Shown in pieces: positions 13,779 through 31,269 of a stretch of DNA of 41,325 nucleotides. Numbering within the stretch: position 1 is the first letter of the stretch; each line of letters opens with the position of its first letter. A program made the position numbers and the translations under genes. The notes below the pieces were generated by a model. It was not told the origin of the DNA, ran no database searches, and saw only the letters and a list, made by a program, of their open reading frames with translations. The stretch spans positions 1 through 41,325 of IMG/VR virus record IMGVR_UViG_3300035683_000204, one strand, 5' to 3'. Source of the DNA: a virus. Lineage: Duplodnaviria; Caudoviricetes.

Positions 13779-13798
13779 TCCCGATCTCCTGTTGGGGT

Positions 13799-16041: not shown

Positions 16042-17810
16042 CCTCCAGTCCCAAAGCCCAACTGCTCGCCCATGCGGGGGACCTGCACCCCGCCGGCATC
16101 GTCAAAGAGTCCTTCGCGGCCGAGCGCGTCTTCCGCAGTCAGCCGGCCTGCATCCTTCGCCGGCGCCAGACTGGAGCACGCGGCGGTCACCTCTTCGAAC
16201 TGGCCCTCGCCGACGGTGAGGCACTGGTCGATGGCATCCCAGACGTCATCCTTGGGGTGCTGCCCATAGTAGGAGATCTGCTCCTTGGCCGCGGCAGAGA
16301 GCTCGTCGGAGAACAGGATCGTCTCCGACACGACGCCCCCCCGGCGCGACTTGATCCGCAGATCCTTGTCTCCCTTCGGTGGGCCGGCGACCAGGTTGAT
16401 TGTGACCTGTGCCGCGCGCGCCGCCTTCTGGAGATCCTCGTCATACGAGCTGAGGGCCACCTTCTCCACGCCGGCGAAGTGGATCCGCCTGAGCACGTGC
16501 CGCGCGATGATTGCCGACTGCACCTGGTCCGGCGGGAGCGCCTCGGCGAGCACCCACCGGACTACGCGGCGCCCGTCCCGGATAAAGTCGATCTCCACCA
16601 CGGCCGACGTGTCGCTGATGGTGGTGCCGCGCGACGGGTCCCAGAAGATGCCCGTGGCGAGCACGTCGTCTTCTGCGGGAAGCTCCTCCCTGGACCGGTA
16701 GTTGATCGTGGGGAAGTAGCTCCCCGCGGGGTCAAACGGATCGTTCTGCCTCTCCGAGAGGAAGCTGCCGAGGTCCTCAGCCCGCTCCGTCATGAGGCCG
16801 TACAGGGTGAACTGCTCCGGCCACAGCACCACCGCGCCTCGGTCCATCCGGGTGCGGTTCGCCACGTAGAACGCGCGCGCCGCCGCCTTCCGGTCCGGCA
16901 GGCTGCGATCGTGGTAGATGGCTTCCCACTCGCGCCACAGGCCGTCGAGCTCTTCCGGGTAGGAGACCAGGGCGCGGTGGATGTCCGCGTCGCTCTCCAC
17001 CTGGTGCTTTAGGAACGACTCGGCGTGGAGGATGGTGCCGACGATGATGTAGACCGCTGCGCGCCCGAGCTTCCGCACCACCTTGTTCCACCACGCCGCC
17101 TTCTTCCGCCGGCGCTTCGGGTTGTGGACCTCCTGGTCGTTCTCCAGGTCGTCTCCGAAGATCAGGTCCGGGCGGAAGCGCCTCCACCGGGCGCCGCGGA
17201 TCGCCTTGCCGCTGCCCGCCGCGGCGATCACGCACTCGGTCCCCAGCACCAGGAAGTTCACGCGCGGCTTCTCCAGGTAGACCCCCAGCTCGGGGTAGAC
17301 GGCCTGGAGCCGTTCGTTCGTGTCGATCTCGGTGCGGATGTCACTCAGGATCCCGCGCGCCTGGTCGCTGGTGTCGGAGGTGATCACCGCGAATCGCCTC
17401 AGCTGGTTGGCGGCCGCCCAGATCGCCGCCCACGCGGTACCCACCACCGACTTGGCGCACTCGCGGGGGTACGCCCGGGCAATGGTGTCCTCCTCGGTCT
17501 CGCCATGCACCAGCGCGGTAATGTCATCGGCGAGCTTGCGATGGAATGGGGCGCTCGCGATCTCCCGGCCCTTCCTGTCCTTCCGCCAGTCCTGCCCGAA
17601 GTACGTCCAGAAGAGCCAGTAGGAAGCGGCGAACTCGGCCTGGATCGCTTCCAGGGGCGCATCTTCGGGCAGCTCCAGGAACACCCGCGCGTCCGCCCGG
17701 ATCTCCTCCCGCGCTTCTTCCAGCGCCTCTTCATCACTCAGCTCCGGCGGAGCAGGCTCCGGCACCAGGTCATCAAGGGCATCGGAACCCGGAAAGCGGA
17801 TGACGCTCAA
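16032..17810 (-). CDS. terL: Terminase large subunit
   Basis: Walker A-like PRECAKS, RPDLIFGDDLE, VGTILH, nuclease WDPS and DDVWDA. TTG start at 17810 after GGGAGG. Confidence 0.92.
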   Translation of the reverse strand: MSVIRFPGSDALDDLVPEPAPPELSDEEALEEAREEIRADARVFLELPEDAPLEAIQAEFAASYWLFWTYFGQDWRKDRKGREIASAPFHRKLADDITALVHGETEEDTIARAYPRECAKSVVGTAWAAIWAAANQLRRFAVITSDTSDQARGILSDIRTEIDTNERLQAVYPELGVYLEKPRVNFLVLGTECVIAAAGSGKAIRGARWRRFRPDLIFGDDLENDQEVHNPKRRRKKAAWWNKVVRKLGRAAVYIIVGTILHAESFLKHQVESDADIHRALVSYPEELDGLWREWEAIYHDRSLPDRKAAARAFYVANRTRMDRGAVVLWPEQFTLYGLMTERAEDLGSFLSERQNDPFDPAGSYFPTINYRSREELPAEDDVLATGIFWDPSRGTTISDTSAVVEIDFIRDGRRVVRWVLAEALPPDQVQSAIIARHVLRRIHFAGVEKVALSSYDEDLQKAARAAQVTINLVAGPPKGDKDLRIKSRRGGVVSETILFSDELSAAAKEQISYYGQHPKDDVWDAIDQCLTVGEGQFEEVTAACSSLAPAKDAGRLTAEDALGREGLFDDAGGVQVPRMGEQLGFGTGGWS

Positions 17811-17865
17811 GATGCCTCCCAGACGCGCGCGACCCCCGCACCGGCCCACGAGCCGACGCAAGGCC

Positions 17866-17912
17866 GGATCGTGTGCGTAGGGCCGTTGCGCAACGTCGCG
17901 GCGGGCATTCCG
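17866..17912. promoter_or_regulatory. GGATCGTG-N11-GTTGCGCAACGTCGCGG motif upstream of terL
   Basis: Palindrome GTTGCGCAAC; the same motif and spacing occur inside both 96-bp inverted repeats. Confidence 0.6.
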
Positions 17913-17954
17913 GCGTTCATTCTCAACTTTTGGTGGGAGCCGGTGAGGAGGCGG

Positions 17955-18146
17955 TCAGATCGAGGGGTTCCGAAGCCAGATTGGCGCACAGGCCGGCAGA
18001 GGGTCAGCGGAGGGTTTGACTTCACCTGTCCACCCGCGGACGTCCGCGGCTTCCATCAGCTCGCGTCGCTCCTGGCAGGTGCAGCACGTGCACCCCACGC
18101 GGAGCGGGGGCAGCTCGGCCAGCCGCGCCGCGGCCGCCGGAGTCAC
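17955..18146 (-). CDS. Small Cys-rich hypothetical protein
   Basis: Start overlaps the terS stop; CTCCTC. Confidence 0.4.
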   Translation of the reverse strand: MTPAAAARLAELPPLRVGCTCCTCQERRELMEAADVRGWTGEVKPSADPLPACAPIWLRNPSI

Positions 18147-18580
18147 ACGGGCTCCTCGATCTCGGCGCGTCGCAGCTCCGCGCGCAGGTCCGCAAGGATC
18201 GTCTTGCGCCGGGCCTGGATCAGCGGAGCGAGAGCGGGCTCCCGCATCAGCACCACCAGCAGCCGCTCCGCCACACGCATCGGGTCCGGGTTGGGATCGC
18301 GGGGTGAGTCCAGGCCTGCCAGGCGGGCCATGGTGGCTGCGGCATACGCCTGCTGCGGGTCCGCCGACTCCCGCGCCGCCTGCGTCAGGCTGACCACCAG
18401 CTGAGCTGCTTCGCGCTCCAGCTGGCGGTTCCGCTCGCGGATCCCCGGCCAGTCATCCTCTCCTGACCAGCGCTGGAGCGTGGCCCGGCTGATGCCCAGC
18501 CTCTCCACGAGCCAGGTCAGGGAGCGGCCGGCGACGTACAGGTCGCGAGCTCGCGTGCGGTTGGAGAGGTCGTAGGCCAC
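18143..18580 (-). CDS. HTH protein, probable terminase small subunit (DUF1804-like)
   Basis: ARDLYVAGRSL...LGISRATLQRW...DDW; upstream of terL. Confidence 0.72.
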   Translation of the reverse strand: MAYDLSNRTRARDLYVAGRSLTWLVERLGISRATLQRWSGEDDWPGIRERNRQLEREAAQLVVSLTQAARESADPQQAYAAATMARLAGLDSPRDPNPDPMRVAERLLVVLMREPALAPLIQARRKTILADLRAELRRAEIEEPV

Positions 18581-18581
18581 C

Positions 18582-18737
18582 CTACGAAGCCGCGTTGCGG
18601 GCGGCCTCCACGAGAGCGCGCATCGCGGCGGTGCGCTGCCGGAGCACGGCAACGTTCACCTCCCCCAGCACCCGCTCCGCCCGGCGCCGAAGCGCCCAGA
18701 CGCGGACCCGCTGCGCCAGCTGGTGCACCGCGCTCAT
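18582..18737 (-). CDS. Small basic hypothetical protein
   Basis: 51 aa; GGAGG RBS; translationally coupled. Confidence 0.5.
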   Translation of the reverse strand: MSAVHQLAQRVRVWALRRRAERVLGEVNVAVLRQRTAAMRALVEAARNAAS

Positions 18738-18967
18738 TCCGGTCCTCCCGCGCGCAGCGCCATGGCCTGGCGCACGTGATCGAGCACGACGCCGAAATCG
18801 CCCTGCGCCTGCAGGTGCTCGCGCACCCACGTGTTCAGCTCGCGATTCTCCCTGTGGAGCACGTAGCACCAGCGGAGCACACCCAGGAGCACGCCAAGGA
18901 GAACCAGGGAGACGGCGACCTGGCTCTTGAGGACCGCCTCCCACGCGTGCAATTTCTCGGGAGTCAC
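18734..18967 (-). CDS. Single-TM membrane protein (holin-like), first late gene
   Basis: VAVSLVLLGVLLGVL followed by a coiled coil; start uncertain. Confidence 0.55.
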   Translation of the reverse strand: MTPEKLHAWEAVLKSQVAVSLVLLGVLLGVLRWCYVLHRENRELNTWVREHLQAQGDFGVVLDHVRQAMALRAGGPE

Positions 18968-19045
18968 GTCGGCGTTTGTCGAGGGGACACGGGAAGCGAC
19001 ACGGGGAGAGCGGCGGACGGCGCGGCGGCGGGCGGGAACGCAGGC

Positions 19046-19119
19046 GGGGCCGTGCTGCGCTTGCAGCACGGCCCCAAGGTAATTCGGCGCCGGGGGGAAG
19101 GTGGCGCCGTTGTCCAGGC
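19046..19119 (-). promoter_or_regulatory. Putative late promoter copy A with hairpin
   Basis: GCCTGGACAACGGCGCCACCT-N17-TACCTT then a 13-bp stem; heads the late operon. Confidence 0.75.
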
Positions 19120-19134
19120 GCGCAAAGCCTCCTC

Positions 19135-19182
19135 CACCGAATACGGGGGGCCGTCCGCTGGGACGGCCCCCCGTATTCGGTG
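19135..19182. terminator. Perfect 22-bp hairpin, probable terminator insulating the late operon
   Basis: CACCGAATACGGGGGGCCGTCC gctg GGACGGCCCCCCGTATTCGGTG. Confidence 0.7.
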
Positions 19183-19209
19183 CGTGTCGGCGGGTGCAGG
19201 CGCCGCTCC

Positions 19210-19518
19210 CTATCTGCCCCCAGCAGCGCGAAGCTCCCGGCGCACGCAACCTCTGTATAGCCAGTACGACCCCTCGCCCGTCGCGGTCGCCATGCGCGTG
19301 CAGTGCTGCGCGATGCGTGCGGGCACGGAGGGGGCGGCGCGCAGCTCTTCCTTCGACCGCGCCTCCCTCCGCATGCACCCGGCCTTCATTTCGTAGCTTC
19401 CGCCCGACGCGCGGGACATCAACTCGCAAAACCGCTCACTGTCGAACTTCGGCAGATCGCCCCCCTGCGCAGCACCGGCGAGCAAGAGAAGCGGCAGGGC
19501 GAACACACGTAGCTTCAT
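19210..19518 (-). CDS. Small secreted 4-Cys protein
   Basis: Signal peptide MKLRVFALPLLLLAGAAQG; internal repeat GSY...GC.RRE twice. Confidence 0.75.
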   Translation of the reverse strand: MKLRVFALPLLLLAGAAQGGDLPKFDSERFCELMSRASGGSYEMKAGCMRREARSKEELRAAPSVPARIAQHCTRMATATGEGSYWLYRGCVRRELRAAGGR

Positions 19519-19624
19519 GGCGACCCCGTGAAGGTGGAGAGCGGCGGCACGGCGGCACAGCCCCAAGGTAAAGCGCCAGGCGGGCGGGCGGAACAGGATC
19601 GTTCCGCTGACCTGCCGAGCGCGC

Positions 19625-19972
19625 CTAGTTCGGCTTCCCCGACCCCGGCAGCGCGGGGTTCACCACTTCGTTCACGAGCCGTTGGAAGGCGAGCGCCTTC
19701 CAGTGCGGCGGCACGCGCGCCATGTGCTCCGGGCGGGACACGTCGAACGGCTCCCCGTCCACCTCAACCCCGTCCACCCCGCGGATGCGGTCCTCGAAGA
19801 ACCCGGGCAGGAGGGACGCGAAGAACTTCAGCCGCATCGTCTCCCCCTCCCCCTCGCGGTCCATCGTCTCCTGCAGCTTGAAGTATTGTTCGTCGGTGAA
19901 CGGCGCGAGCCGGAGCGTGGCGCCCCCCTCTACGGTCACGGTCAGCTCTTCCCGGTGTGGCAGCTTCAGCAT
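19625..19972 (-). CDS. Second tail assembly chaperone G (paralog; no GT extension)
   Basis: Aligns with 6817-7233 (VEGG, TD.QYF, REGEG, VDG.PFDV, RVP.HWKALAF); AGGAG RBS. Confidence 0.9.
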   Translation of the reverse strand: MLKLPHREELTVTVEGGATLRLAPFTDEQYFKLQETMDREGEGETMRLKFFASLLPGFFEDRIRGVDGVEVDGEPFDVSRPEHMARVPPHWKALAFQRLVNEVVNPALPGSGKPN

Positions 19973-20041
19973 ACGCGTTCTCCTGTCTGGTGGATGGTGT
20001 GCGGGGGCGAGGCAGCGCGCCCCCCCCGCGGCGGAACGGGC

Positions 20042-23000
20042 TTATTTCACCCTGCGGTATCCCCCGACGTTGGGGATGCGGACCTGCGCATCCTGGCGGG
20101 CCCTCCGCCCCAACGCGTACTGGATTTCCTCAATCGTCTCCCCCGACTCGGAAATGATCTGGATTTTCACCACGTCGGGCCCTTCCTTGCGCGCCGTCTT
20201 TGCGAGCGCCGCCGACTCGTAATCCGCCACCACCACCCGCTGCGGCTCCCGGTTCCGCTCCCGCTGGCCGAACAGGCTCCCGATCAGCCCGCCCAGCACG
20301 CCCACGCCCGCGCCCAAAATCGGGTTGATCTGGGTGGCGGCGGCTTGCGCAATCGACGCGAGCCCCTGGACGACCGCGGCCTCCATGCTGGCGCTGCCGC
20401 TGATGGCCGCCTGCACCATGTTCCCGAACGCCTGCACCACCAGCACCCCCGCCCGGTCGAATTCGTCCGACCCCTTCCCGATGGCGACGGCGTACTCTTC
20501 CGCGGAGCGCCCGGCCCCCCGGATGATCCCTTGCAGGGCGTCCAGGTCCGCGGCGCCCAGCTTCGCCGGGTCGATCCGCAGCCCCGCCGCCGCCTCGTAC
20601 TGGCGCTGCGCGGCCCGGCGGTCCAGGGCCTCCACCCGGGCCGCCCCCAGGCCCCGCGTGCTCACGTCCACCCCGCGGGCGGCGTCCAGCCCGGCCGGGG
20701 CCAGGAAGGGCGTCAGGTCGGTCCGGCGGAGCCCCGACAGCCCGCCGTGAATGGTCCCGAGCTGGACCACCACCTCCGCAAGGTTCCCGCGGAGCCGGTA
20801 CACCTGTTCGTTCAGCTCCTTGAAGGCGTCCCCGCCGCGGGGGAGCCGCGTCAAGGCCGCTTCCGCGGTGGCGACTTCCACCGTCACGCTCGCCAGCGTG
20901 GCGCTGGCCCGCTCCCGCAGCTCCGCCAGGGCGCGCACCCCGTCCGCGGTGCCGATCCGCGCGAAGCCTTGGTCGGGGCCGACCACCTGCAGGGGCGTTT
21001 TCTTCCGGCCGCGGGGTTCGTCGTCCCCGAAGTCGAAGGGCGGGAGGCGCGGCGGACCGGGGGCCGGAGGCCCCGTCACCACGGAGCCGTAGAGCCCCTG
21101 CAGCTCCGCGTTGCGGCGCACGGCATCCGCGTACTTGTCGCGGGCGGCATCCAGCAACGCGTCTACGCCCTCTATCTCGGACCTGATGCGCGCGACGCTG
21201 GCGCTCTGCGCCTGCGCCACGCTCCCGAAGATGTCTGCTGTCCCCGTGCTCCCCACACGCGCCACGACGCGGGCGGCGTCCGCCGCCAGCTTCGCCCGCC
21301 TGCCCTCTAGCTCCTCTATCTCCAGCTCCGCGTCGAGCTGCGCCTGCTGCACCCCCCCAAGGCTCATGTCCCGCAGCGCCACCCGGAAGTCTGCGGCGGC
21401 ACCCTGCGCCCGGCGGGCGGCGTCCTCTGCGCTGTCGCCCGCGTGCGCGAACGCAGATGCCACGGCGGTCAACCCAACCACAAGCGGCGCGCCGATCCCA
21501 ACGATCAGCAGCAGCCCGCGCGCGGCCGTCGCCACCCCGAACACGGCCGTTGACGTGGCGACGGCCGCGGACCGCACCGCTACCGTCGCATGGGCCACGG
21601 AGGCGAGCCCCGCGGCGGCGGGCCCCGCAACGGTTACGATCCCGCCCAGCACCAGCACCGTCGTCTGGACCGGCCCCGGCAGCTCGGTGAACACGCCCAC
21701 GGCGCCGCGCGCGATTTCCACCACGGGGCGGGACGCTTCCAGCACGTCCACCAGGGCGGGCGCCAGCTCCGCGCCCAGCTCCACCGCCAGCACCGCGGCT
21801 TCCGACGCGGCCTGCTTGAACTGATACCCGTCCGTCTCCTGTAGGCGCTTGAAGGCGGCGTCGAGGATGCCCGCGGAGCCCTGGATGCTGGCGGCGACCT
21901 TGGCAAACTCCTCCCCTTGCAGCCCGGCCGTCCCCAGCACGCCGACCAGCCCTTCCACGTTCGGAATCACCCGCGCAAGCGCATCCTCGTTGCCTTTGAA
22001 GCGGGCCGTCAGCTCCAGCAGGCTTTGGGACAGGCCCTTTTCGCGCACTTCCTCCCGCAGCGCCGCCGCCGACAGACCGACCTTACGGAGCACCTTTTCG
22101 GCATCGTCCGACGGGTTGAGCAGGGTTTGCAGGTACGACCGGAGCCCCGTCACGGACGCGGACGCATCCCGGTTGACGCGCGAGAAAGAGGCGATGAACG
22201 ACCCCACCTCTTCAAAGGAGACCCCCATAGACGCGGCGACCGGGAGGACTTGCCCCAGGCTCCCGGCGAGCTGCGACACCTCGAAATTTCCTTCCCGCGC
22301 CGTCGCCACCATGATTTCGGTTGCGCGGCGCGCGGACAGGTTCGACGCGGCATACGCCTGCATCGCCGCTGTCGTGGTGCCCGCGATGGTGTTCACCTCG
22401 CCCAGCCCCAGCGCGGACGCCTTTGCGGCGTCGGACAGCACGTCCAGGGCTTCCGCGCCCCGCTCGCCGCCGCTGGTGACGGTGAACAGCCCGCGCGCCA
22501 GCTCCGCGGGCAAGGCGCCCAGCTCCGGGGCCATCTCCACCACGGCGGCCCGCCATGCGTCTACCTGATCCCGCGACACCCCCACCAGGGTTTCGATGCG
22601 GGTCATGGAGCTGTCGAAGTCGGTCGCCATGTGGACCGCCGCGCCCCCCGCCGCCACCAGCGGGAGCGTGACGCGGGTGGAGAGCGTGCCGCCGATCTGT
22701 TCCAGGCGGTCCGCGGCGCGGTCGGCACGTTCCGCGAGCCCCGCCACCTTCCGGCCCGCCGTCTCCGATGCGTCCCCCGCCGCCTCCACCCCGCGGGCCG
22801 CGGTGCGGGCGCCGTCGCCCAGCGCGATGAACCGGCCCCGCGCGTCCCGCACCCGCCCGTCCAGGCCGACGACCCGCTCCCCGGCCGCACCGGCGACGCG
22901 CGAGACTTCCACCACCCCGGCGGCGCCCGTGCGCCCGGCGGGCCCCAGCGCGGACAGGTCGTCCCGGAGCCCCGCGGTGGCGGCGCCGTCCGCGGCGGCG

Positions 23001-23221
23001 GCCACCACCTGAACCGACCCCGCCAGCTCCCGCATTGCGCGGCCCGCCGCGTCCAGCTCCGCGGCATCGACCGCGAGCGGGCCGAAGTCGGCGCCCGCGG
23101 CGCCGCTGGTGGCGGCGGTCAGCTCCGTCTGTGCGGTGCGGATCGCGGTGTAGGCGGCGACCACTTCGGGGGCGCCACGCGACGTGACGACGATTTCTAT
23201 TTCGTTCGTAACCTTGGTCAC
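20042..23221 (-). CDS. Second full-length tape measure protein (TMP2)
   Basis: 1059 aa, colinear with TMP1 (VTNEIE; LRSYLQTLLNPSDDAEKVL; ALARVIPNVEGLVGVLGTAGLQ; RKEGPDVV...VRIPN). Confidence 0.95.
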   Translation of the reverse strand: MTKVTNEIEIVVTSRGAPEVVAAYTAIRTAQTELTAATSGAAGADFGPLAVDAAELDAAGRAMRELAGSVQVVAAAADGAATAGLRDDLSALGPAGRTGAAGVVEVSRVAGAAGERVVGLDGRVRDARGRFIALGDGARTAARGVEAAGDASETAGRKVAGLAERADRAADRLEQIGGTLSTRVTLPLVAAGGAAVHMATDFDSSMTRIETLVGVSRDQVDAWRAAVVEMAPELGALPAELARGLFTVTSGGERGAEALDVLSDAAKASALGLGEVNTIAGTTTAAMQAYAASNLSARRATEIMVATAREGNFEVSQLAGSLGQVLPVAASMGVSFEEVGSFIASFSRVNRDASASVTGLRSYLQTLLNPSDDAEKVLRKVGLSAAALREEVREKGLSQSLLELTARFKGNEDALARVIPNVEGLVGVLGTAGLQGEEFAKVAASIQGSAGILDAAFKRLQETDGYQFKQAASEAAVLAVELGAELAPALVDVLEASRPVVEIARGAVGVFTELPGPVQTTVLVLGGIVTVAGPAAAGLASVAHATVAVRSAAVATSTAVFGVATAARGLLLIVGIGAPLVVGLTAVASAFAHAGDSAEDAARRAQGAAADFRVALRDMSLGGVQQAQLDAELEIEELEGRRAKLAADAARVVARVGSTGTADIFGSVAQAQSASVARIRSEIEGVDALLDAARDKYADAVRRNAELQGLYGSVVTGPPAPGPPRLPPFDFGDDEPRGRKKTPLQVVGPDQGFARIGTADGVRALAELRERASATLASVTVEVATAEAALTRLPRGGDAFKELNEQVYRLRGNLAEVVVQLGTIHGGLSGLRRTDLTPFLAPAGLDAARGVDVSTRGLGAARVEALDRRAAQRQYEAAAGLRIDPAKLGAADLDALQGIIRGAGRSAEEYAVAIGKGSDEFDRAGVLVVQAFGNMVQAAISGSASMEAAVVQGLASIAQAAATQINPILGAGVGVLGGLIGSLFGQRERNREPQRVVVADYESAALAKTARKEGPDVVKIQIISESGETIEEIQYALGRRARQDAQVRIPNVGGYRRVK

Positions 23222-23300
23222 GGCGCGCCGGGGAGCGGGGGAAGTGCGGAGCCCCGCGGGCGGCGGGGAGGCGGCGCCCGCGGGGGCGCGCGACCGGTGG

Positions 23301-23344
23301 AAGGTACGCGCGCGGAAGCGGCGGCGTGGCGCGCCTGTCCAGGC
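23301..23344 (-). promoter_or_regulatory. Putative late promoter copy D upstream of TMP2
   Basis: GCCTGGACAGGCGCGCCACGC-N17-TACCTT; same spacing as the other copies. Confidence 0.7.
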
Positions 23345-23422
23345 GACGGCGGGGAGGGGCGGCGGCAGGCCGCAACCGGCTGGGGATGCCGGAGGCGAGG
23401 GCCGCAGGCGGGCCGTAGACCC

Positions 23423-23518
23423 GCCCCGCGACGTTGCGCAACGGGGTTGGGGGCACGATCCCCGCCGACCCGCGGCGGGACGACACCCCCGGAGCAGATC
23501 GGGGCTTGTGGCGCGATT
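23423..23518 (+). repeat. 96-bp inverted repeat, left copy
   Basis: 88/96 identical to the reverse complement of 27842-27937. Confidence 0.92.
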
Positions 23519-23520
23519 TC

Positions 23521-23700
23521 GGGGACCGGAATTCGCCCCCTTGAGACACTCATCGCGTGTTGGAACCCGCCCTTGAGAGGCGGCTCGCGGGTCTACGCCG
23601 CCGCCTTACTGGCCGGACAGCTCGCCGCAGGGCGTTCCCCGCCCCTCTTTGCCAACGCGAGAATATTGCGGGCCGCGTTCACGTCGCGGTCCAGCCGGAG
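23521..23700 (-). ncRNA. Putative TnpB omega/reRNA (5' boundary approximate) with candidate guide 23540-23521
   Basis: Two hairpins after the tnpB stop ending in GTGTCTCAA, resembling an IS200/IS605 right end. Confidence 0.55.
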
Positions 23701-24732
23701 CCCGCACTCCTCACACTGGTGGACGCGCACCTTGAGCGTCTTGCGCTTCGCGGGCGCGTATCCGCAGCCGGAGCACATCTGAGACGTTCCGCCAGGGTTC
23801 ACCGCCACCACCACGCGGCCGGCGCTTTCAGCCTTGCCACGCAGGATTTCGAGGAACTGGCACCACCCGGCGTCATACACGCTCTTGCGGAGCATGCCGC
23901 GGGAGAGGCCGCGGAAGTTCAGCGCTTCAACGGCAAGGAAATCGTAGCGCCGCACAAGATCGCGTGCGGTCTTGAAGTGGAAGTCACGCCGGGCGCTCCG
24001 CACGTAGCGGTGCACCCGCGCCAGCGTCCGGACCCGCGCGCGGAAGCGGGCCCCACCTAGCTTCGCCTTCCTCATCCGCCGGTTTGCACAGGCCAGCCGA
24101 GCGGCGGCGTGCTGCGCGAACCTGGGATTCTCCACCGTGTCCCCATCCGACGTGGCGAGGAACGACGCAAGCCCGAGGTCGAGCCCGGCGGCGGCACCCG
24201 TCGCGGGGAGCGGGCGCGGCTCCACCCCGTCGCAACAGAACGTGACCCACCAGTCCCCGCACCGATCCCGCTTGAGTGTGACGCTCTTCACCTTCCCTTC
24301 CACCGGACGGGAGAGGAACAGGCGGAGCGTACCAATGCCCGCCAGCGTGAGCCGCCGCCCTTCTAGGGTCCACCCGGTCTGCCGGTACGTGGTGGAGTCA
24401 TACCGGCCCTTGCCTTTGAAGCGGGGATAGCCGGGCGCCTCGCCCCGCTGGGCACGTTCGAAGAACGCCTTGAAGGCCCGGTCGAGATAGCGGAGCGCGG
24501 CGTGGGTCGCCTGGCAATCCAGGGCGCGGTACTCGGGATCGGCGCGCCGAATCTCCGTGATCTGGGCCGTCTGACCGGCGTAGGTGACAGTCACTCGGCT
24601 CTTGGCCCACGCATCCCGTCGCTCCTGAAGCGCAGCGTTGTAGAGCTGGCGCAGTAGCTCAAGCTGGCGCTCCGCGTTGCGGAGAGTCGAAGGGCTCATT
24701 CGAGCAACCTTGTACTTGAAGCTGCGGCGCAT
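23593..24732 (-). CDS. tnpB: TnpB RNA-guided endonuclease (IS200/IS605 family)
   Basis: YNAALQER, GYPRFK, RuvC GLDLG / AVEAL / DRDVNAARNI, Zn finger CSGC..CEEC. Confidence 0.96.
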   Translation of the reverse strand: MRRSFKYKVARMSPSTLRNAERQLELLRQLYNAALQERRDAWAKSRVTVTYAGQTAQITEIRRADPEYRALDCQATHAALRYLDRAFKAFFERAQRGEAPGYPRFKGKGRYDSTTYRQTGWTLEGRRLTLAGIGTLRLFLSRPVEGKVKSVTLKRDRCGDWWVTFCCDGVEPRPLPATGAAAGLDLGLASFLATSDGDTVENPRFAQHAAARLACANRRMRKAKLGGARFRARVRTLARVHRYVRSARRDFHFKTARDLVRRYDFLAVEALNFRGLSRGMLRKSVYDAGWCQFLEILRGKAESAGRVVVAVNPGGTSQMCSGCGYAPAKRKTLKVRVHQCEECGLRLDRDVNAARNILALAKRGGERPAASCPASKAAA

Positions 24733-24769
24733 CGGGTCACGGGGGCGGTTCGGGTCCGGCGGCTGGGGG

Positions 24770-24833
24770 TGTCTCCCCTGCTTGTATATATCATAATAGA
24801 CGGGCGGGGCGTTGTCAGCCCCCGCATATACAA
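24770..24833 (-). promoter_or_regulatory. Sigma70-like promoter/operator for tnpB
   Basis: CTGACA-N17-TATGAT flanked by TTGTATAT / ATATACAA half-sites. Confidence 0.75.
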
Positions 24834-24849
24834 GCCGGGGGGGGTGCCG

Positions 24850-25071
24850 CTAGTCGGAGAGGGTGCGGGCGAGCTTCTGTAGGTCGGCGGCGCGGGTCCG
24901 GGCCAGGTCAGAAAGAACCTTGCGCCAGTTGGCCGGGGGGTCTCGGCGGCTGGGGTTGTCGGGGGGTAGTTTCGCCTGTCGAATGAGCTGGAGCGACACC
25001 CCGGCGGCGTCCGCGATTTCTTGGTCTGTGGTGCACCGCTTCAGCTCTGCGGATGCGGCCTTGAAGTCCAT
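24850..25071 (-). CDS. Small HTH (Xre/Cro-like) regulator
   Basis: DQEIADAAGVSLQLIRQA; 73 aa. Confidence 0.8.
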   Translation of the reverse strand: MDFKAASAELKRCTTDQEIADAAGVSLQLIRQAKLPPDNPSRRDPPANWRKVLSDLARTRAADLQKLARTLSD

Positions 25072-25076
25072 CGGAA

Positions 25077-25140
25077 TTGTATATGCTAGGGTTGACGGCG
25101 GGGTCCCTGTCTATTATCTTATATACAGGCAGGGGAAACA
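25077..25140 (+). promoter_or_regulatory. Sigma70-like promoter/operator, mirror copy of the tnpB promoter
   Basis: TTGACG-N17-TATCTT; 49/64 identical to the reverse complement of 24770-24833. Confidence 0.75.
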
Positions 25141-25259
25141 GCAAGGCTGACCGCACACCCGCCAAGATGTCACGGCCAGCCTTGCCCCCAACGCGACCCG
25201 AAGGCCGCACCGAAAAGGTGCCCCCTGCCGCGGCTCGGGTCAAGGTCAGGAGACCGAAC

Positions 25260-25868
25260 ATGGTACGTGCCGCAGACGCCGCCACTGCCGCCGCCGCCGC
25301 CGCCGCGCTGGCCCCCGCGTTCCCCAAGGCAAGCGTCTATCACTCTCAGCTCGTCGGGCGCGGCCCGCTCTGCATCCGCCTGACGGCCGGTGTGATCCCA
25401 AGCAAGTTCAAGGACAAGCCCGCCTTTGCCCCCTTCCAGGTCCGCGGCGACACGGCGGAGTATCGCCTGACGGTCGAGAACGACACGATCCGCGAGCGGC
25501 TTGCCTCGCTCCCGCTGAACACCTGGGTGGAAGTGCAGGCCGCCGGGAGCCGGGACGCTGCCACGCTTGAAGTGCTGCGCATGGCCCCGCAGCGCACCCC
25601 CACGGCGCGCCGGATGGACGCGGGCGCGGCCGGGCCGGGCGAGTCTCCCGCGGGCGCGGCGGCCCCTGCGCCGTCCAGCCTGGAAAACGAATACTGGACC
25701 GCGCTGGAAGCCGCGGTGCGGATCGTGGGCGACTTCCAGCGGCAGTTCGGCCGGGAGCCCAGCGAGGCAGAGCGGGCCATCGCCTGCACGCTCTGGATTC
25801 AGGCCAACCGCGAGCGCGACGGGCGCCCGCTGGCGGCGCCGCGCCCGGCCCCGCGGGGGGGCCGGTGA
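25260..25868 (+). CDS. Hypothetical protein (beta-rich domain, linker, helical C-terminal domain)
   Basis: AGGAG RBS before ATG 25260; 202 aa. Confidence 0.7.
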   Translation: MVRAADAATAAAAAAALAPAFPKASVYHSQLVGRGPLCIRLTAGVIPSKFKDKPAFAPFQVRGDTAEYRLTVENDTIRERLASLPLNTWVEVQAAGSRDAATLEVLRMAPQRTPTARRMDAGAAGPGESPAGAAAPAPSSLENEYWTALEAAVRIVGDFQRQFGREPSEAERAIACTLWIQANRERDGRPLAAPRPAPRGGR

Positions 25869-26077
25869 CGCCCCGGCAGATCCACGCGGCAATGCGCCGG
25901 GCGGTTCGCGTGGTCATGAAAGCCCAAGTCACCAAAGCCGGGGGCGTAGCCCCCGGCCCGTTCCAGATCCCCGGCGAATTCTTCTCCCCGCACGCCTGGA
26001 ACGCGGCGGTTCGGGCGGAAGAGGAACGGGCGGCGGAGCGGCGGCAGCGGGAGCGGTACTTGGGCAGGGCTGGCTAA
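25865..26077 (+). CDS. Small hypothetical protein
   Basis: GTGA overlap with the upstream stop. Confidence 0.55.
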   Translation: MTPRQIHAAMRRAVRVVMKAQVTKAGGVAPGPFQIPGEFFSPHAWNAAVRAEEERAAERRQRERYLGRAG

Positions 26078-26157
26078 TTTCGTGGGACTGGCGGGCCGCG
26101 GTGGCTGAATCTATACTCCGTGAGCCTGCCGGTTCCCCGCCTTGCACTCTTCCGACA

Positions 26158-27462
26158 ATGAGCGGTCACATGGACCAATCCAACAACACCCCGTCCACGG
26201 GCGGCGGCTCTCCTGACGCCCGCGCCCTCTACGTGCGCAGCTCCGGGCCGCCGCCCGTCGCGGGGAGCTTTGACGGCTCGGCAATTCTTGAAGAGGTGGC
26301 GGAGCCGTTGGGGGTGGTGCTGTTCCAGGCGGCGCGGGACGGGCTCCTGTGGGCGACCGCCGCACCGGGGGAGCGGGCTGGGATCTTCGCACCGCGGGCG
26401 CGACTGCCCCGCCTGGACGGATACCGCGGGCTGCGGGGGGCGCTCCATCCCTTCGTGCGGATGGTGCGGAAGCCCCGCGAGACCGACCCGGCGGAGCTGC
26501 TGGAGGCTTCGGGGCAGGTGTGCGAGTGGGCGGAGCACCGGGGGCACCTGCGGACAGCGGGGGCGTTCGCGGAGATTGCCGCCCGCCTCTTCCCTTCGGA
26601 CGGGGCGCTCGCCGTGCGGGTCGGCCAGTTCGCGCGGCGCGCAGCCGACTACGGGCGGGCCGAAGCGTGGCTCGGGTGGGCCAACGTACTCGCCCGGCGC
26701 GCGGGGGACTGGCGGACCTACTGCACGTCGCTGGCTGCGCTCGGCAATCTGCACTGGCAGCGTGGCAACTACCCAAAGGCGTGGCGGCGGCAGGCGCAGT
26801 GCCTTCGCCGGGCGCGGCTGCTGGGCTTGCGCGACTTCCAGGCGTCGGCGCTGCACAACCTCTTTGCCCTGTCGGTGGAGATGGACGACTTCCAACAGGC
26901 GGAGACGTACTACAAGGCCGCTTTCGAGGTGTACGGACCGACGCACCCGCGCATGCCGTACTTTGCGCATGACGTCGCCTGGTTCTACATGCTCCGGGGC
27001 CACAACACGGCGTCCATACAGATCCTCAAGGCCCTGCTCTCCCACTTCCAGAAGCCGACCGACCAGCTTCTCGTATGGGGGGGGCTGGCGCGAACGGCGG
27101 CCGGGGCGGGACGGCGGGAGCTGTACCGGCAGGCTCGCGGCGCCGTGTGGGACATCGTGCGGGAGCATGGGAACGCGGAGCACGCGGCAACGGCGCTGCT
27201 GGACGCGGCGCGCGGAGCGGAGGCGCTTCGGGACTGGCATGACTGCCGTGTGCTGGCCGAAGCCGCGCTCGGGATTGCGCAGATCCGGGGGGAGGGGAAA
27301 GTCTCGCTCTCTGCCGAGGCGCTGGTGAGGATGGCCCGCATCGGCCTAGCGCCGGGTGCCGTGGCGGGCGGGGCGCACGCCGGGGAGGTGGTGGCGGGCG
27401 CGCAGCCGGAGACGTGGACGGGGCCGCTCCTGACCCGCGAGATCGTCAGGGCGCTGCGGTAG
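26158..27462 (+). CDS. TPR-repeat protein (RRNPP-receptor-like candidate)
   Basis: Helical repeats LAALGNLHWQRGNYPKA, ALHNLFAL..DDFQQAETYY, AHDVAWFYM; start 26158 or 26170. Confidence 0.8.
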   Translation: MSGHMDQSNNTPSTGGGSPDARALYVRSSGPPPVAGSFDGSAILEEVAEPLGVVLFQAARDGLLWATAAPGERAGIFAPRARLPRLDGYRGLRGALHPFVRMVRKPRETDPAELLEASGQVCEWAEHRGHLRTAGAFAEIAARLFPSDGALAVRVGQFARRAADYGRAEAWLGWANVLARRAGDWRTYCTSLAALGNLHWQRGNYPKAWRRQAQCLRRARLLGLRDFQASALHNLFALSVEMDDFQQAETYYKAAFEVYGPTHPRMPYFAHDVAWFYMLRGHNTASIQILKALLSHFQKPTDQLLVWGGLARTAAGAGRRELYRQARGAVWDIVREHGNAEHAATALLDAARGAEALRDWHDCRVLAEAALGIAQIRGEGKVSLSAEALVRMARIGLAPGAVAGGAHAGEVVAGAQPETWTGPLLTREIVRALR

Positions 27463-27489
27463 CTGGCGGAAAGCCGGGGGCGGGCATTC

Positions 27490-27525
27490 AGGCGGCGGGG
27501 GCGCGATGCGCCCCCGCCGCCTTTT
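27490..27525 (+). terminator. Rho-independent terminator between the convergent TPR and peptide genes
   Basis: AGGCGGCGGGGGCGC gat GCGCCCCCGCCGCCT TTT. Confidence 0.8.
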
Positions 27526-27529
27526 CGTC

Positions 27530-27733
27530 CTACGCCTTCGTGGAATCCGGTGCCGCGGCTCCGTTCGACGTGGTGCTGTCGGGTTCGTTCTTGTGCCCGG
27601 AGCCGAACAGGCCGCTGTTCTCATTGCGCCGGTCGCCAGGTGCGGCGGTGTCCGGCGCGGTGGAGTCGGAACAGGCCGCCGCCACGGCGGCGCAGATCAG
27701 CAGGGCGACGGCGACGGTGCGAGTTGCTTTCAT
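27530..27733 (-). CDS. Small lipoprotein / secreted pro-peptide
   Basis: 67 aa; AGGAG RBS; signal peptide with lipobox AAAC; embedded SGLFGSGH. Confidence 0.8.
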   Translation of the reverse strand: MKATRTVAVALLICAAVAAACSDSTAPDTAAPGDRRNENSGLFGSGHKNEPDSTTSNGAAAPDSTKA

Positions 27734-27841
27734 GGTAGCGGGCTCCTGAGATGGGGAGGGTGGATAGCGGGACCGGGCGGCCCCGCGTCTCCAAGATAGC
27801 CGGTGGGGCCGCCCGCGGCCCCCCGCGCGCCGCCCCCTCAG

Positions 27842-27937
27842 AATCGCCCCACAAGCCCCGATCTACTCCGGGGGTGTCGTCCTGCCGCGGGTCGGCGGGG
27901 ATCGCGCCGCCTACCCGGTTGCACAACGTCGCGGGGC
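27842..27937 (-). repeat. 96-bp inverted repeat, right copy
   Basis: Partner of 23423-23518. Confidence 0.92.
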
Positions 27938-27953
27938 CATTCCGTCTCCGGAG

Positions 27954-28355
27954 TCACGTGCCCCCGCCGACGATCCCGATCTGTCCCAGCTCCACCCTGA
28001 CCTCCTCGGCGTGCCGCTGCGCCCGCGCGATCCGCACGTCCTCCGCGGTCTCCAGCTCCCGGCGGCGCGAGTCCCGCAGCGTCCGGTCAAGCTCTACCCG
28101 CCGGAGGATCAGCTCGTCGGTACGGCTGCGCAGCTCCCGGAGGTCGGCTTCGTGCGGGCTGCGCGCGGAAGGGTCGTAGTGGATCAGGTCATCGGCGCTG
28201 TTGACGAACAGCTCCAGCTTCGCCGACACCATTCGGTGCTCGTCGCGGGTGTCTCCGTCGATCTGCGCGCAGATCCGGCGGATCAGGGCGCGCGCGCCGT
28301 CCTCCAGCGCGAACAGCTCCTCGCGCAGCTTGCGCAGGGTGGCGTTCTCGTTCAC
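27954..28355 (-). CDS. Hypothetical coiled-coil protein
   Basis: 133 aa, Glu/Arg/Leu-rich; coupled to the upstream ORF. Confidence 0.65.
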   Translation of the reverse strand: MNENATLRKLREELFALEDGARALIRRICAQIDGDTRDEHRMVSAKLELFVNSADDLIHYDPSARSPHEADLRELRSRTDELILRRVELDRTLRDSRRRELETAEDVRIARAQRHAEEVRVELGQIGIVGGGT

Positions 28356-28888
28356 GAGGGCTCCAGGGCGGGAACGGGGGGAGAGGTCCCGGCGGCGGGG
28401 TCCTCGGCAGGGGGGCGAATCTCACACATCTCGCGGGCGGCCAGTTCCAGGAAGAGGCGGACGATCAGGCGCGCCACGCTCTCGCGCACACTCAGCTGCA
28501 CCAGCACGAACGCGACGGGGCGGGGCAGCACCCGCGACACCTCGCGCACCAGCACCGTCCGGAGGGCCCTGGCACCGCCAGCTTCCTGGAGCAGCTCCCA
28601 GACGATCTCCTCCGAGAGTTCCATCCGCTCCGCCGGCCCCGGGCTCCACCACGCCAGCCGCACGAGGGTGGGCGCGAGCACCAGGTCCCGGACAGCGGCC
28701 CACATCTCGCCCAGATCGCGCTCCTCAAGCGGCCTGCCCGGGAAGAAGAAGCCGGTGTCCTGCCGCAGGAGGGCCGCCAGATCGGCCGTGGTGTCCAAGC
28801 GGAGTTTCCCCGGGCACGTCACCAGCGTCGCGACGTTCAGCTGCCGCACCCGAGTGCCAGAATGCTCTTTCGCGTGAACCGCCGACAT
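28352..28888 (-). CDS. Hypothetical protein (start uncertain, 28888-28942)
   Basis: Open frame downstream of promoter copy B. Confidence 0.55.
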   Translation of the reverse strand: MSAVHAKEHSGTRVRQLNVATLVTCPGKLRLDTTADLAALLRQDTGFFFPGRPLEERDLGEMWAAVRDLVLAPTLVRLAWWSPGPAERMELSEEIVWELLQEAGGARALRTVLVREVSRVLPRPVAFVLVQLSVRESVARLIVRLFLELAAREMCEIRPPAEDPAAGTSPPVPALEPS

Positions 28889-28984
28889 CGCGGTTGCAGG
28901 GTGCAGAGGAGAGCACCCAGCCGGGTAGCAGCTGGTGGACATCGCGTCGTATGTCGGGGGGAGACTTCAGGCCGGAATGCAGAC

Positions 28985-29058
28985 GGGGCCGTGCTGCGTC
29001 AGCAGCACGGCCCCAAGGTATTGTCTCGGCGCGCCTGAGGTGGCGCCGTTGTCCAGGC
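28985..29058 (-). promoter_or_regulatory. Putative late promoter copy B with hairpin
   Basis: Identical to copy A except for the hairpin loop and the 17-nt spacer. Confidence 0.75.
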
Positions 29059-29068
29059 GCTTCGCCTC

Positions 29069-29719
29069 CTACTCCATTTGGAGACTCACGAGTCCCCAGC
29101 TTTCATCGCTCGCCTGGTATTGAACGGTGCAGTCGAAGTTGCTCCGGAGCTTTGCACCGAAAGAGTTTTCCGCGTCCACAGAGGCTCTCACTTGGTACCT
29201 GCCGCTGCCAACGTGAGCCACGTGATCGGAGTAGACACCCGGGAAGTCAGCCGTGCCGGGGGCTTTAAGCCGTCGGCTCACGAAGTCCTGGCACGCCACC
29301 CATGCTCCGACCGCGGTGCCATTGATTCGAGCCTCCGCACTCGATCCGCCCGCAGAATCATCGCCTCCCCCCAAGGCAGCGAACAACACCATCACCCCAA
29401 GCAGCCCGAGGCAGCCGATCCCGCACCCCTTCGCGGCATTGCTCTTTTGCTGCTGTGCTGTAGCAGCGGCCGCTTGCACGGCGCGGGACCTCTCGCCGGA
29501 AGGATCCGGAGCCCCGCACTGCGGGCAGGTCAGCGCATCAGTGCTCACCTGGTGCCGGCACACGCGGCATGGTGCCAGGCGCGGGGTCCCTGGGATGGGG
29601 GTCGCCCCGGCAGCTGCGAGACTCCCCACGCCGGCGGGGTCCGCTGCACCGCAGTGGCTACACCTGGGATCCCGCGTACTGACTGCGCCCCCACACTCTC
29701 GGCAGATCGCAACGGCCAT
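29069..29719 (-). CDS. Double zinc-ribbon membrane protein
   Basis: Four CxxC pairs, TM GCGIGCLGLLGVMVLFAAL, C-terminal LKAPGTADF...VDAENSFGA. Confidence 0.8.
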   Translation of the reverse strand: MAVAICRECGGAVSTRDPRCSHCGAADPAGVGSLAAAGATPIPGTPRLAPCRVCRHQVSTDALTCPQCGAPDPSGERSRAVQAAAATAQQQKSNAAKGCGIGCLGLLGVMVLFAALGGGDDSAGGSSAEARINGTAVGAWVACQDFVSRRLKAPGTADFPGVYSDHVAHVGSGRYQVRASVDAENSFGAKLRSNFDCTVQYQASDESWGLVSLQME

Positions 29720-29723
29720 GGGC

Positions 29724-30332
29724 TCAAGCAGCTGGTGATAGGCCGGGAGCGCCCCCTGCGGCTTCCATCTCGCGCATGCGTCGCGCTACAACCCGGGCGT
29801 CCACTCGAAACTCGGTCGCGAACCACTGTACCACCCCGTCCACCTCCCGCATCTCCCACAGCACCGCCTCGGCCTCAGCTGAAAGCACCGGCCGCTTCCT
29901 GAGTCCCAGCGCCCTCGCCTTGTTGCGCACCCGATCCGGTGAGCATCCCAGCTCGGCGGCGATCTCCGGCATCGAGGCATGCGGCCAGCGATCCACCAGG
30001 AGGCGCTCCGCGGGCTCGCTCCAGTGGTACTCGGCGGTCAGCTCCAAGACCTGCATTCGGGCCTGCACAGCCTGCGCGGAGCGACCCAGACCGCGGCCGA
30101 TCTCCTTCGCAGTCAGCCTCCCTCGCTGCTCGACCAACACGCTGTCCTGCTCAGCAGTCCACCGCGGCAGCACCGCCAGCTTGAGCACCCGGGCCCGTTC
30201 GTTGAGCGCCGCCACCGTGCGTCCCAGGTGACGGGCGATAATTGCCGTGCGGCGCACACCGTAGGCACGGGCGAGCAGCGCGTCATCCCGATCGCTCCAC
30301 GGGATCCGTCTCGGCTGGCTCATCAGCGTCAT
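29724..30332 (-). CDS. Tandem Myb/SANT-like HTH repeat protein
   Basis: Repeats WSDRDDALL, WTAEQDSVL, WSEPAERLL, each followed by IA..LGR-type helices. Confidence 0.75.
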   Translation of the reverse strand: MTLMSQPRRIPWSDRDDALLARAYGVRRTAIIARHLGRTVAALNERARVLKLAVLPRWTAEQDSVLVEQRGRLTAKEIGRGLGRSAQAVQARMQVLELTAEYHWSEPAERLLVDRWPHASMPEIAAELGCSPDRVRNKARALGLRKRPVLSAEAEAVLWEMREVDGVVQWFATEFRVDARVVARRMREMEAAGGAPGLSPAA

Positions 30333-30847
30333 TCGCCTTCCTCCGGGACCTCCACGAACCGGCGCTCCAGATCGTAGAGCTCTGGTGGTATTGGCCGACG
30401 CAGATCTATCGCCGTTTTCTTGACTGCGGTGATCAACGCCAGCGCCACAATCCTTCGCTCCTCCCCACTCACATTCCCAATCAGCACCTCCATCATCCGC
30501 TGCAATCGCGGATTATGGCTCCCAAAGAAATCGAGCAGGTCCTCCTCGGGCGACCGCTCCGGGCGATACCCCGCTGTAGCTTCTGATACCTTTCCTACAC
30601 CCTTCCTGTCGGTAGTTCTGTAAACTTGCTGTTCGGCCGTTTCGGAAGAAGAGCCCCCATCCAACCACCTAGCGACTTGCTCCCGTGTTTTCTGGCGCGG
30701 CTCTGCAGTCGACCCGTCCAACAGACTTAGTAGCGCTGGCCGAGAGATACCGATCTCGCGAGCAAGCAGCTCGGGAGATTTGCGCGACTCCTCCACACGC
30801 TTCTGTAGTCGTTGGCGCAGCCCAGTCCAGGGAGGAGCGTCGGTCAC
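30329..30847 (-). CDS. Prophage repressor (Xre HTH)
   Basis: LAREIGISRPALLSLLDG; GTG 30847 abuts the operator; divergent from the early operon. Confidence 0.8.
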   Translation of the reverse strand: MTDAPPWTGLRQRLQKRVEESRKSPELLAREIGISRPALLSLLDGSTAEPRQKTREQVARWLDGGSSSETAEQQVYRTTDRKGVGKVSEATAGYRPERSPEEDLLDFFGSHNPRLQRMMEVLIGNVSGEERRIVALALITAVKKTAIDLRRPIPPELYDLERRFVEVPEEGE

Positions 30848-30903
30848 CTGTAACCTTACAGAAAGTTGCTTGACAGGCGGGTGCCCATGCTGTAACCTTA
30901 CAG
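30848..30903 (+). promoter_or_regulatory. Immunity switch: two CTGTAACCTTACAG operators and early promoter TTGACA-N17-TAACCT
   Basis: Identical 14-bp palindromes at 30848-30861 and 30890-30903; -35 at 30870-30875. Confidence 0.88.
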
Positions 30904-30905
30904 CG

Positions 30906-31172: not shown

Positions 31173-31175
31173 TCG

Positions 31176-31201
31176 GGCGACGGCCAGAACGGCCGTCGCC
31201 C
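31176..31201 (+). terminator. Hairpin after ner/cro (terminator or antitermination site)
   Basis: GGGCGACGGCC agaac GGCCGTCGCCC. Confidence 0.5.
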
Positions 31202-31269
31202 TTCATAGTGCCCGTGGATGCCCTGCGGGATCACGCCACCAGAGTTCCGCAACCCCATGGAGGTGGGTC

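Follow-up and report, generated by a model that had tools for sequence, protein, structure and literature searches.

An insertion with a second tape measure gene in the late operon of a Mu-like prophage

The prophage and the insertion in its late operon

The DNA analyzed here, a complete virus record of 41,325 bp (IMG/VR record IMGVR_UViG_3300035683_000204; hereafter the window) that is present in one biocrust metagenome run, comprises most of a transposable prophage and, within its late operon, a block with a second tape measure protein (TMP) gene, which is the subject of this study. The prophage, referred to as the helper phage, encodes a DDE transposase (33072–34718) and a MuB-like ATPase (36807–37967), matching phrog_310 and phrog_296, and further a repressor, terminase, portal, protease-capsid fusion, tube, the tape measure protein TMP1 and distal tail genes. 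Its tail assembly chaperone (TAC1) has a -1 slip site and the T part. The DDE transposase with an AAA+ MuB-like gene in the window, and GemA in four relatives, identify the helper as a Mu-like phage. The prophage ends lie outside the window, and a scan of four relatives for TG...CA with a 5-bp duplication gave no convincing pair. Related prophages, mostly with 40–80% protein identity, sit in genomes of the Longimicrobiaceae (G001 and five more of the same family), and we therefore infer that the host belongs to this family of the Gemmatimonadota. The names "holin-like" and "late promoter" used below were assigned by position and appearance, with no family match behind them.

The block is a discrete foreign insertion of 8,990 bp (18970–27959), bounded by a 15-bp direct repeat that matches at 14/15 positions (Table 1). 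The repeat has no third place in the window at ≤1 mismatch, and 0/20,000 random position pairs reach 14/15. It coincides exactly with the stop/start overlap of the two flanking genes, encoding a 133-aa protein (27954–28355) and a holin-like protein (18734–18967). These genes, 9 kb apart in the window, are directly coupled in four of four related Longimicrobiaceae Mu-like prophages: the homologue of the 133-aa gene runs up to or into the start of the holin-like gene in G001 (E 3e-14), G052 (E 4e-7) and G057 (E 6e-6), and the same coupling is seen by eye in G064, where a frame break lies near the end of the 133-aa gene homologue. Removing the 8,990 bp in silico restores a four-base stop/start overlap as in G052 and G057, and in the filled state both flanking genes are intact. 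The initial annotation had drawn the borders at 19210–27937 and the position between the immunity and late operons; the direct repeat and the empty site correct the borders, and the block actually lies inside the late operon, where it separates normally coupled late genes. The alignment with related prophages that it proposed finds the site empty, and the block missing, in all four.

An assembly chimera, which would have undone the earlier interpretation, is judged unlikely because a 48,379-bp contig from a second assembly of the same run, and so not an independent sample, crosses the block unchanged and covers 13000–32900 in one piece with 0 differences. Codon use also sets the block apart (chi-square 203, 40 df, against the late genes). 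The shift earlier seen by eye is present for GAA (fractions of 0.33, 0.12 and 0.07 in block, late and early genes) and GGG (0.51, 0.31 and 0.25), whereas GCG is used much alike (0.49, 0.45 and 0.44). In a leave-one-out test, eight of nine block genes were assigned to the block, and all 24 early and late genes as well as both flanking genes to the backbone. This test is not specific to the insert, since three of the six genes in the middle region (the repressor, a zinc-ribbon gene and 28352–28942) also score block-like. The insert brings the measured core length from 31.8 to 40.8 kb; in three relatives the core measures 29.9, 30.7 and 36.6 kb.

Tail genes, copied cis motifs and the control module

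As had been noticed initially, the block has a tape measure protein and a chaperone of its own, TMP2 and TAC2. TMP2 is 49% identical to TMP1 over 1,115 aligned residues, end to end, and best conserved in the core and the C-terminal part. In a quick version of the TMP tree (11 TMPs), TMP1 and the TMP of G001 form a clade (Shimodaira-Hasegawa-like approximate likelihood ratio test, SH-aLRT, 100) without TMP2, which is therefore, as far as this tree indicates, from a sister lineage and no recent duplicate. The proportion of nonsynonymous differences (pN) between TMP2 and TMP1 is 0.34, below the synonymous proportion (pS) of 0.57; the ortholog pair of TMP1 and the G001 TMP gives 0.26 and 0.53, all values being uncorrected and synonymous sites near saturation. 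A second TMP is absent from all relatives examined.

TAC2 is 55% identical to TAC1 and has no XXXYYYZ slip site, and the whole window holds a single T region; the six phage chaperones aligned with TAC2 all keep a GN slip motif. In 7/7 related tail operons the order after the tube gene is TAC-T-TMP. Because the block order, promoter-TMP-TAC, reverses this under a promoter of its own, the gene order indicates that the tail genes of the block are rearranged and not a plain remnant. Lambda tail assembly requires G as well as GT (PMC3296357), so that the block, lacking a slip site and T in TAC2, would depend on the GT, tube and baseplate of the helper.

The late-promoter motif, CCTGGACA-N3-GCGCCA...TACCTT, occurs four times in the window, always on the late strand: one copy lies ahead of the lysis/packaging operon, one follows the capsid gene, one precedes TMP2 and one marks the exit of the element. 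The block, for which one copy had been reported, thus holds two full copies and, in addition, a partial one, against an average of 0 in 30 resampled windows for a search pattern that was derived from these very copies. A similar GCGCCA...TAnnnT motif is seen by eye at homologous places in G001, G052 and G064; the CCTGGACA part was not found in the relatives' loci and is present in this phage and the block. The exit copy matches the native promoter at 44/55 nt; the homologous site of G001 matches that native promoter at 28/55.

The two inverted copies of a terL-leader motif described earlier are there as well, as parts of a 96-nt inverted repeat with 92% identity between its arms, whose core, GGATCG-N13-GTTGCRCAACGTCGCGG, recurs upstream of terL at 17866. 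This palindrome, exact or as a one-base variant, lies between terS and terL in 5/5 related prophages including the window, and its octamer occurs elsewhere in four relatives at most once each across 49–74 kb. The palindrome site of G001 matches the native one at 24/37 nt, so that arm B is closer to it and arm A equal (Table 1). A role as packaging or TerS site would fit the position of the spacer palindrome. The repeat arms fold no better than shuffled sequences (z of -1.2 and +1.2). We rejected the 96-nt repeats as transposon or mini-Mu ends: they show no TG...CA, no duplication outside and no match to the end regions of relatives, and TMP2-TAC2 lies outside them. Matches to the inverted-repeat DNA in 11/71 Longimicrobiaceae genomes (E ~1e-4 to 1e-3) were short and GC-rich and were taken as chance.

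The remaining regulatory features center on a small Xre-like helix-turn-helix (HTH) protein. Two sigma-70-like promoters were found in the block where 0.4 were expected; they are copies of each other at 77% identity. One diverges from the HTH gene and the other lies before tnpB, which thus has a promoter of its own, as the separate regulation of TnpB proposed at first implied. The leader behind the HTH promoter has a plausible, not proven, RNA structure, because just one of its 12 pairs changes on both sides. An Rfam search gave no relevant match for the leader; its two miRNA-like hairpin matches were far below gathering scores. Homologues of the HTH occur in 38/71 family genomes, with up to 12 copies, and at 21/30 loci the HTH goes together with the leader pattern. 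Such HTH-module loci form small islands of low GC whose cargo is defence-like (GmrSD, HEPN, AbiEii-type ATPase, OLD-TOPRIM, methylases), in which a conserved open reading frame (ORF) of ~55 aa usually follows the leader. Among 20 such loci examined at length, one also has an integrase, a primase-polymerase and terS. Two genomes have, behind the module, a homologue of the tetratricopeptide repeat (TPR) protein, as the block does. A family search did not find the HTH in the contigs or genomes that hold the four best-covered related prophages.

Table 1. Features of the inserted block and their reference sites in the helper phage (positions in the window; strand given as + or -, with a point where neither applies).
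Feature	Position	Strand	Remarks
Native terS-terL spacer motif of helper (outside element)	17866..17901	+	Reference palindrome site
Left copy of direct repeat (core of att type or target duplication)	18955..18969	.	Overlaps start of holin-like gene
Late-promoter region copy, exit-facing toward holin-like gene, terS and terL	19031..19121	-	91 nt, 81% identical to native region
Long, nearly perfect hairpin, likely terminator or insulator	19135..19182	.	z = -7.2; 0/200 shuffles as good
102-aa orphan ORF, signal-peptide-like N-terminus (by eye)	19210..19518	-	No family match; in 0/71 family genomes
Partial late-promoter motif, -10-like part only, before 102-aa ORF	19555..19600	-	Motif scan
TAC2, tail assembly chaperone of G type, lacking slippery site and T extension	19625..19972	-	Keeps leader of phage chaperone gene
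TMP2, intact 1,059-aa tape measure protein, PF10145	20042..23221	-	37 aa shorter than TMP1; both ends conserved
Late-promoter motif ahead of TMP2-TAC2	23297..23344	-	31/55 nt to native, ungapped
Inverted-repeat arm B with terS-terL palindrome motif, inverted	23423..23518	-	29/37 nt to native site
TnpB, NF040570	23593..24732	-	250 bits (cut-off 100); RuvC D/E/D residues by eye; hairpin past stop
Second operator-promoter copy, before tnpB	24770..24833	-	77% inverted match to 25077-25140; promoter 24818-24790, 10/12 consensus
Small Xre-like HTH, likely repressor	24850..25071	-	Atlas feature score 0.98 to Gemmatimonadota cluster; Xre-like structural neighbours
Operator-promoter divergent from HTH	25077..25125	+	Promoter 25092-25120; homologous HTH loci share this layout
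Conserved two-helix 5' leader of HTH module	25126..25244	+	12 pairs kept in 215/215 cells, 18 sequences
202-aa protein, predicted OB-like fold, SSB-like (weak)	25260..25868	+	Model pLDDT 67
70-aa ORF, no known family	25865..26077	+	Family searches
TPR protein, multicopy Longimicrobiaceae family	26158..27462	+	Family in 71/71 genomes
Hairpin between convergent TPR and peptide genes	27490..27522	.	z = -4.3
67-aa lipopeptide-like ORF, convergent partner of TPR gene	27530..27733	-	Homologue adjoins TPR homologue in G001
Inverted-repeat arm A, 7 nt inside right direct repeat	27842..27937	+	Palindrome oriented as native; 24/37 nt to native
Right direct repeat	27945..27959	.	Includes stop codon of 133-aa gene
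Native late-promoter region of helper (outside element)	28970..29060	-	Reference for block copies

A satellite-like reading of the block and its rivals

An intact TMP and a G-only chaperone under late control are what a tail-substituting parasite would need. We tentatively interpret the block as a satellite-like, helper-embedded passenger that phage transposition copies in cis and that substitutes its tape measure into tails. On this proposal it would have entered by a single crossover at the 15-bp core, with a recombinase supplied in trans or since lost, and in the embedded state would be copied by the MuA/MuB transposition of the prophage. Since replicative transposition copies all DNA between the phage ends, embedding would explain why no Rep is needed. 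In the lysogen, the HTH protein may repress both the operon of the SSB-like gene and, via the duplicated operator, tnpB. Upon induction, the late activator of the phage would fire the motif ahead of TMP2-TAC2, while the exit copy would keep the holin-like and terminase genes on, so that the helper's terminase genes are not cut off. TAC2 would coat TMP2, and with GT, tube and baseplate borrowed the tails would be shorter by the equivalent of ~37 residues and compete with those built on TMP1. The least certain step is that the two palindrome copies may recruit or titrate whichever phage protein, perhaps terminase, binds the terS-terL site.

Several observations weigh against this reading. The block lacks an evident way to spread apart from its helper, and no gain from the tail swap is apparent: as the initial annotation had stated, no match to an integrase, Rep or capsid was found among the block ORFs in Pfam, PHROGs, NCBIfam and PADLOC, and in the absence of these and of a capsid-size gene no independent route is shown. 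Excision or inversion joints were not found in the contigs of the run, which drop rare forms. The element is a single instance. Scans of IMG/VR and of metagenomes gave no second element: TMP2 alone had no second copy in IMG/VR, none of the six GTDB-contig and four IMG/VR loci from a TMP alignment search has the block, and among 125 + 8 loci from IMG/VR pattern scans the related one is only the phage of G001 itself. TAC homologues, present in 6/71 family and 3/401 phylum genomes, all lie within ordinary tail operons. The TPR/peptide pair and the HTH are common host cargo, and at 19/20 HTH-module loci the ORFs scanned within 6.5 kb included no integrase. The copied motifs are unevenly close to this phage: the TMP2 promoter (31/55) and arm A (24/37) match the native sites little or no better than the corresponding sites of G001 do (28/55 and 24/37). 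A pac role of the spacer palindrome is disfavoured because Mu-type phages are described as making the first packaging cut in host DNA near a genome end, and not between terS and terL (PMC5557969). The palindrome is not enriched in other HTH-module islands. No target for a TnpB guide was seen in the window, as 12 candidate guide starts gave no matching run of ≥10 bases. The initial view of an independent parasite or defence module is borne out as far as it concerns a discrete foreign insertion with distinct codon use and copied phage cis motifs. Of the three findings that were to refute it, two did not occur, as relatives lack the block and the second assembly shows no chimera; the third holds in part, for the linkage of TMP2 with TnpB or TPR that was to be sought in other genomes was found nowhere else.

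It is doubtful whether the block can be taken as the first member of a class of transposable-phage satellites that would combine MuA/MuB copying in cis, a tape-measure swap, two copies of the terS-terL signal that bias packaging, and an HTH-plus-RNA-leader switch shared with many integrase-free Longimicrobiaceae islands.

Among the rival explanations, a defence cassette, which we consider unlikely, would use the late-promoter copies to sense related infecting or induced phages, and TMP2 with a surplus of G-type chaperone to poison tail assembly while lysis proceeds. The defence-like cargo beside the HTH-leader module elsewhere is in line with this, as are the palindrome copies, which could titrate a phage protein, and the existence of prophage-borne tail-blocking systems: Tab, as described in PMC10884400, is a constitutive blocker with an anti-Tab partner that targets the tape measure protein, and Tai acts on tail assembly (PMC11364771). 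In contrast to Tab, the block gene is itself a full TMP behind a putative late promoter, with the length and conserved ends of a working part. Such a cassette would harm the prophage that hosts it as well, although the element gives that prophage its late promoter back; in lambda, a higher G:GT ratio accompanied more phage, not less, according to PMC3296357; and PADLOC found no defence match in the block beyond Cas12/TnpB-like and generic TPR models.

We think it distinctly unlikely that the block is a beneficial accessory cassette (a moron), in which the second tape measure would let the prophage build tails of two types and so insure it against host systems by which one TMP is sensed or blocked. 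Defences aimed at TMP are real, as reported for Rta (PMC12987554) and Tab (PMC10884400), both neighbours are left intact with the late promoter re-supplied, and the equivalent accessory slot holds other cargo in relatives, for example a TPR gene in G057. Against this, the two palindrome copies, a repressor-controlled TnpB and a load of 9 kb, with a measured core of 40.8 kb against 29.9–36.6 kb in three relatives, would be left unexplained, and no relative has a second TMP. That the block is functionless debris, in which illegitimate recombination would have caught host island DNA together with a rearranged, defective part of another related phage, is quite improbable, for although it is a single mosaic of phage-, host- and IS-family genes without mobility genes, and microhomology can yield 15-bp repeats, all nine ORFs are uninterrupted with a promoter ahead of each unit, the TMP-TAC order is rearranged, the operator is duplicated before tnpB, and one codon bias is common to most block genes.

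Returning to the satellite-like passenger, satellite TMPs have to our knowledge been shown functional in one family only, the phage-inducible chromosomal island-like elements (PLEs), and helper-embedded satellites only in lambdoid prophages. PLEs have their own integrase, replication and capsid-remodelling genes, none of which is recognisable in the block. P4-like satellites and the capsid-forming type of phage-inducible chromosomal islands (cf-PICIs) carry capsid-size (Sid/Psu) or own capsid genes plus an integrase, and neither was matched in the block either. As described in PMC12987554, PLEs of Vibrio cholerae encode a TMP and a tail assembly chaperone and borrow the other tail parts, and their TMP is built into chimeric, shorter tails; putative tmp genes are also reported there in PLE-like elements and cf-PICIs. 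The block is similar in carrying tmp and tac without tube or sheath genes. It differs in that its tail genes are 49–55% identical to those of its helper, compared with ~20% for PLEs (PMC12987554), and in that it sits in a temperate transposable prophage, whereas PLEs are described as chromosomal islands parasitising a lytic myophage.

Helper-embedded PICIs (HE-PICIs), according to PMC10111431, lie within the late region of a helper prophage, flanked by a short block of identity; they ride passively on helper replication and late transcription, have captured late genes from related prophages, carry a clade-specific integrase, AlpA and primase, and break a lambdoid late gene, which is delayed until excision. 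Like these, the block is embedded at a late-gene junction between short identity blocks. It has no integrase, AlpA or primase, only the Xre-like HTH and a weak SSB-like fold, and unlike HE-PICIs it breaks no gene and has a promoter copy facing the downstream genes. The block is a member of neither PLEs nor HE-PICIs. The words "Mu-like", "transposable" and "tape measure" are absent from the main text of the HE-PICI paper (PMC10111431). In the open-licence literature we found no tail-gene-bearing satellite of a transposable phage, nothing joining "Gemmatimonadota" and "phage satellite", and no description of HTH-leader islands. Both ingredients, chimeric tails made with PLE tmp/tac and HE-PICIs in late genes, are thus published, and a transposable phage combining them was not found in that literature.

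If the proposed reading is true, both traits would be joined, inside a transposable phage, in an element without mobility genes, which would show a minimal strategy of cis parasitism on a phage. As TMP2 and TMP1 remain half identical, the pair would be a good system for studying tail choice between two tape measures, a question left open by PMC12987554. The copied palindrome draws attention to a conserved cis site that these phages have between terS and terL, and the HTH-leader module is a separate lead, as a marker of many small islands in a little-studied soil phylum.

Cargo genes, HTH islands and the related prophages

TnpB looks intact from its sequence and is 44–47% identical to proteins of Thermus and Deinococcus. 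As in IS200/IS605 elements, it is full length with a hairpin past its stop codon; it differs in that tnpA and the typical right-end tetranucleotide were not seen with it, that its end motif is unlike that of three relatives, and that its promoter is the copy of the HTH operator-promoter. A 13/14 guide match inside terL, for a guide start within a repeat arm, was taken as chance.

For the 202-aa SSB-like protein, the Protein Data Bank gave no match at E≤0.001, with OB-fold and SSB chains among the weak rows. Three relatives were found on short contigs; further scans gave 0/151, 1/71 and 1/401, one 1.3-kb metagenome contig, and none in IMG/VR or GenBank phages. One homologue belongs to the early operon of an element that has an integrase.

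The TPR/peptide pair noted initially is present, with the qualification that the TPR protein belongs to an ordinary multicopy host family; the 71-genome tally for this family counts two unpublished genomes (G021 and G026), on which alone no claim depends. A similar convergent ORF was found at 6/27 host TPR loci by a strict pattern. Pairs of a TPR and a convergent lipopeptide gene form a large Longimicrobiaceae family with up to at least 24 copies per genome, and resemble peptide-sensing pairs.

Among rejected candidates, weak joints with sides of 20–42 letters in the contigs of the run came from paralogues or foreign DNA. The four weak TMP matches from family genomes (G005, G017, G022, G060) lack a TAC nearby; in G022 a 26% TPR match lies ~9 kb from the weak TMP match. 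A TAC profile search against 1.84 billion representatives gave 74 proteins, without gene context; the 16 of these inspected reach to or past a GN/KN/KG/KA-type motif, which sets them apart from TAC2.

The HTH-leader islands of the Longimicrobiaceae share the HTH, divergent promoter and leader with the block, and in the two genomes mentioned the TPR homologue next to them; they differ in being low-GC and chromosomal, mostly with the ~55-aa ORF past the leader, and 0/20 examined have tail genes. Some adjoin recurring host genes: thiC (L275, L286), sdhB (L287), acrB-type (L276, L278, L279, L281) and pnuC/nadR-type genes (L290, L292). The thiC and sdhB islands are separated by repeated 200–500-bp copies of the 3' part of the gene, 70–94% identical, an arrangement resembling cassette arrays that enlarge by homologous recombination without an integrase. 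A PICI-like island in G005 (L293, on contig C6), which combines a diverged HTH-leader module with a tyrosine integrase, primase-polymerase, DUF1376 and terminase small subunit, is a candidate Gemmatimonadota satellite.

In the helper phage, a 53-nt inverted repeat (89%; 10687–10905) lies within ORF 10630–11073, directly past the capsid gene and ahead of the internal late-promoter motif, and three ORFs behind MuA (34728–36182) look like transposase-domain pieces, with an rve match and similarity to the C-terminal part of the relatives' MuA. G052 has a tRNA-Met gene after the capsid gene, behind the internal late promoter (L048, 11155–11230); tRNA-like remnants lie at the equivalent place in G001 (L007, ~6070–6130), G064 (L044, ~4500–4560) and the window (~10470–10530), and ARAGORN calls only the gene of G052. 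The prophage of G052 (contig C100) is flanked by two copies of a 92-bp sdhB fragment, 87% identical and 38.6 kb apart (~138,555 and 177,200), perhaps the remnant of a cassette array and not a phage end. In G064 (L044, 6283–11900), unlike in the other relatives, the tail-hub gene lies between the neck and terminator genes, upstream of the tube gene, and the TMP is spread over two frames.

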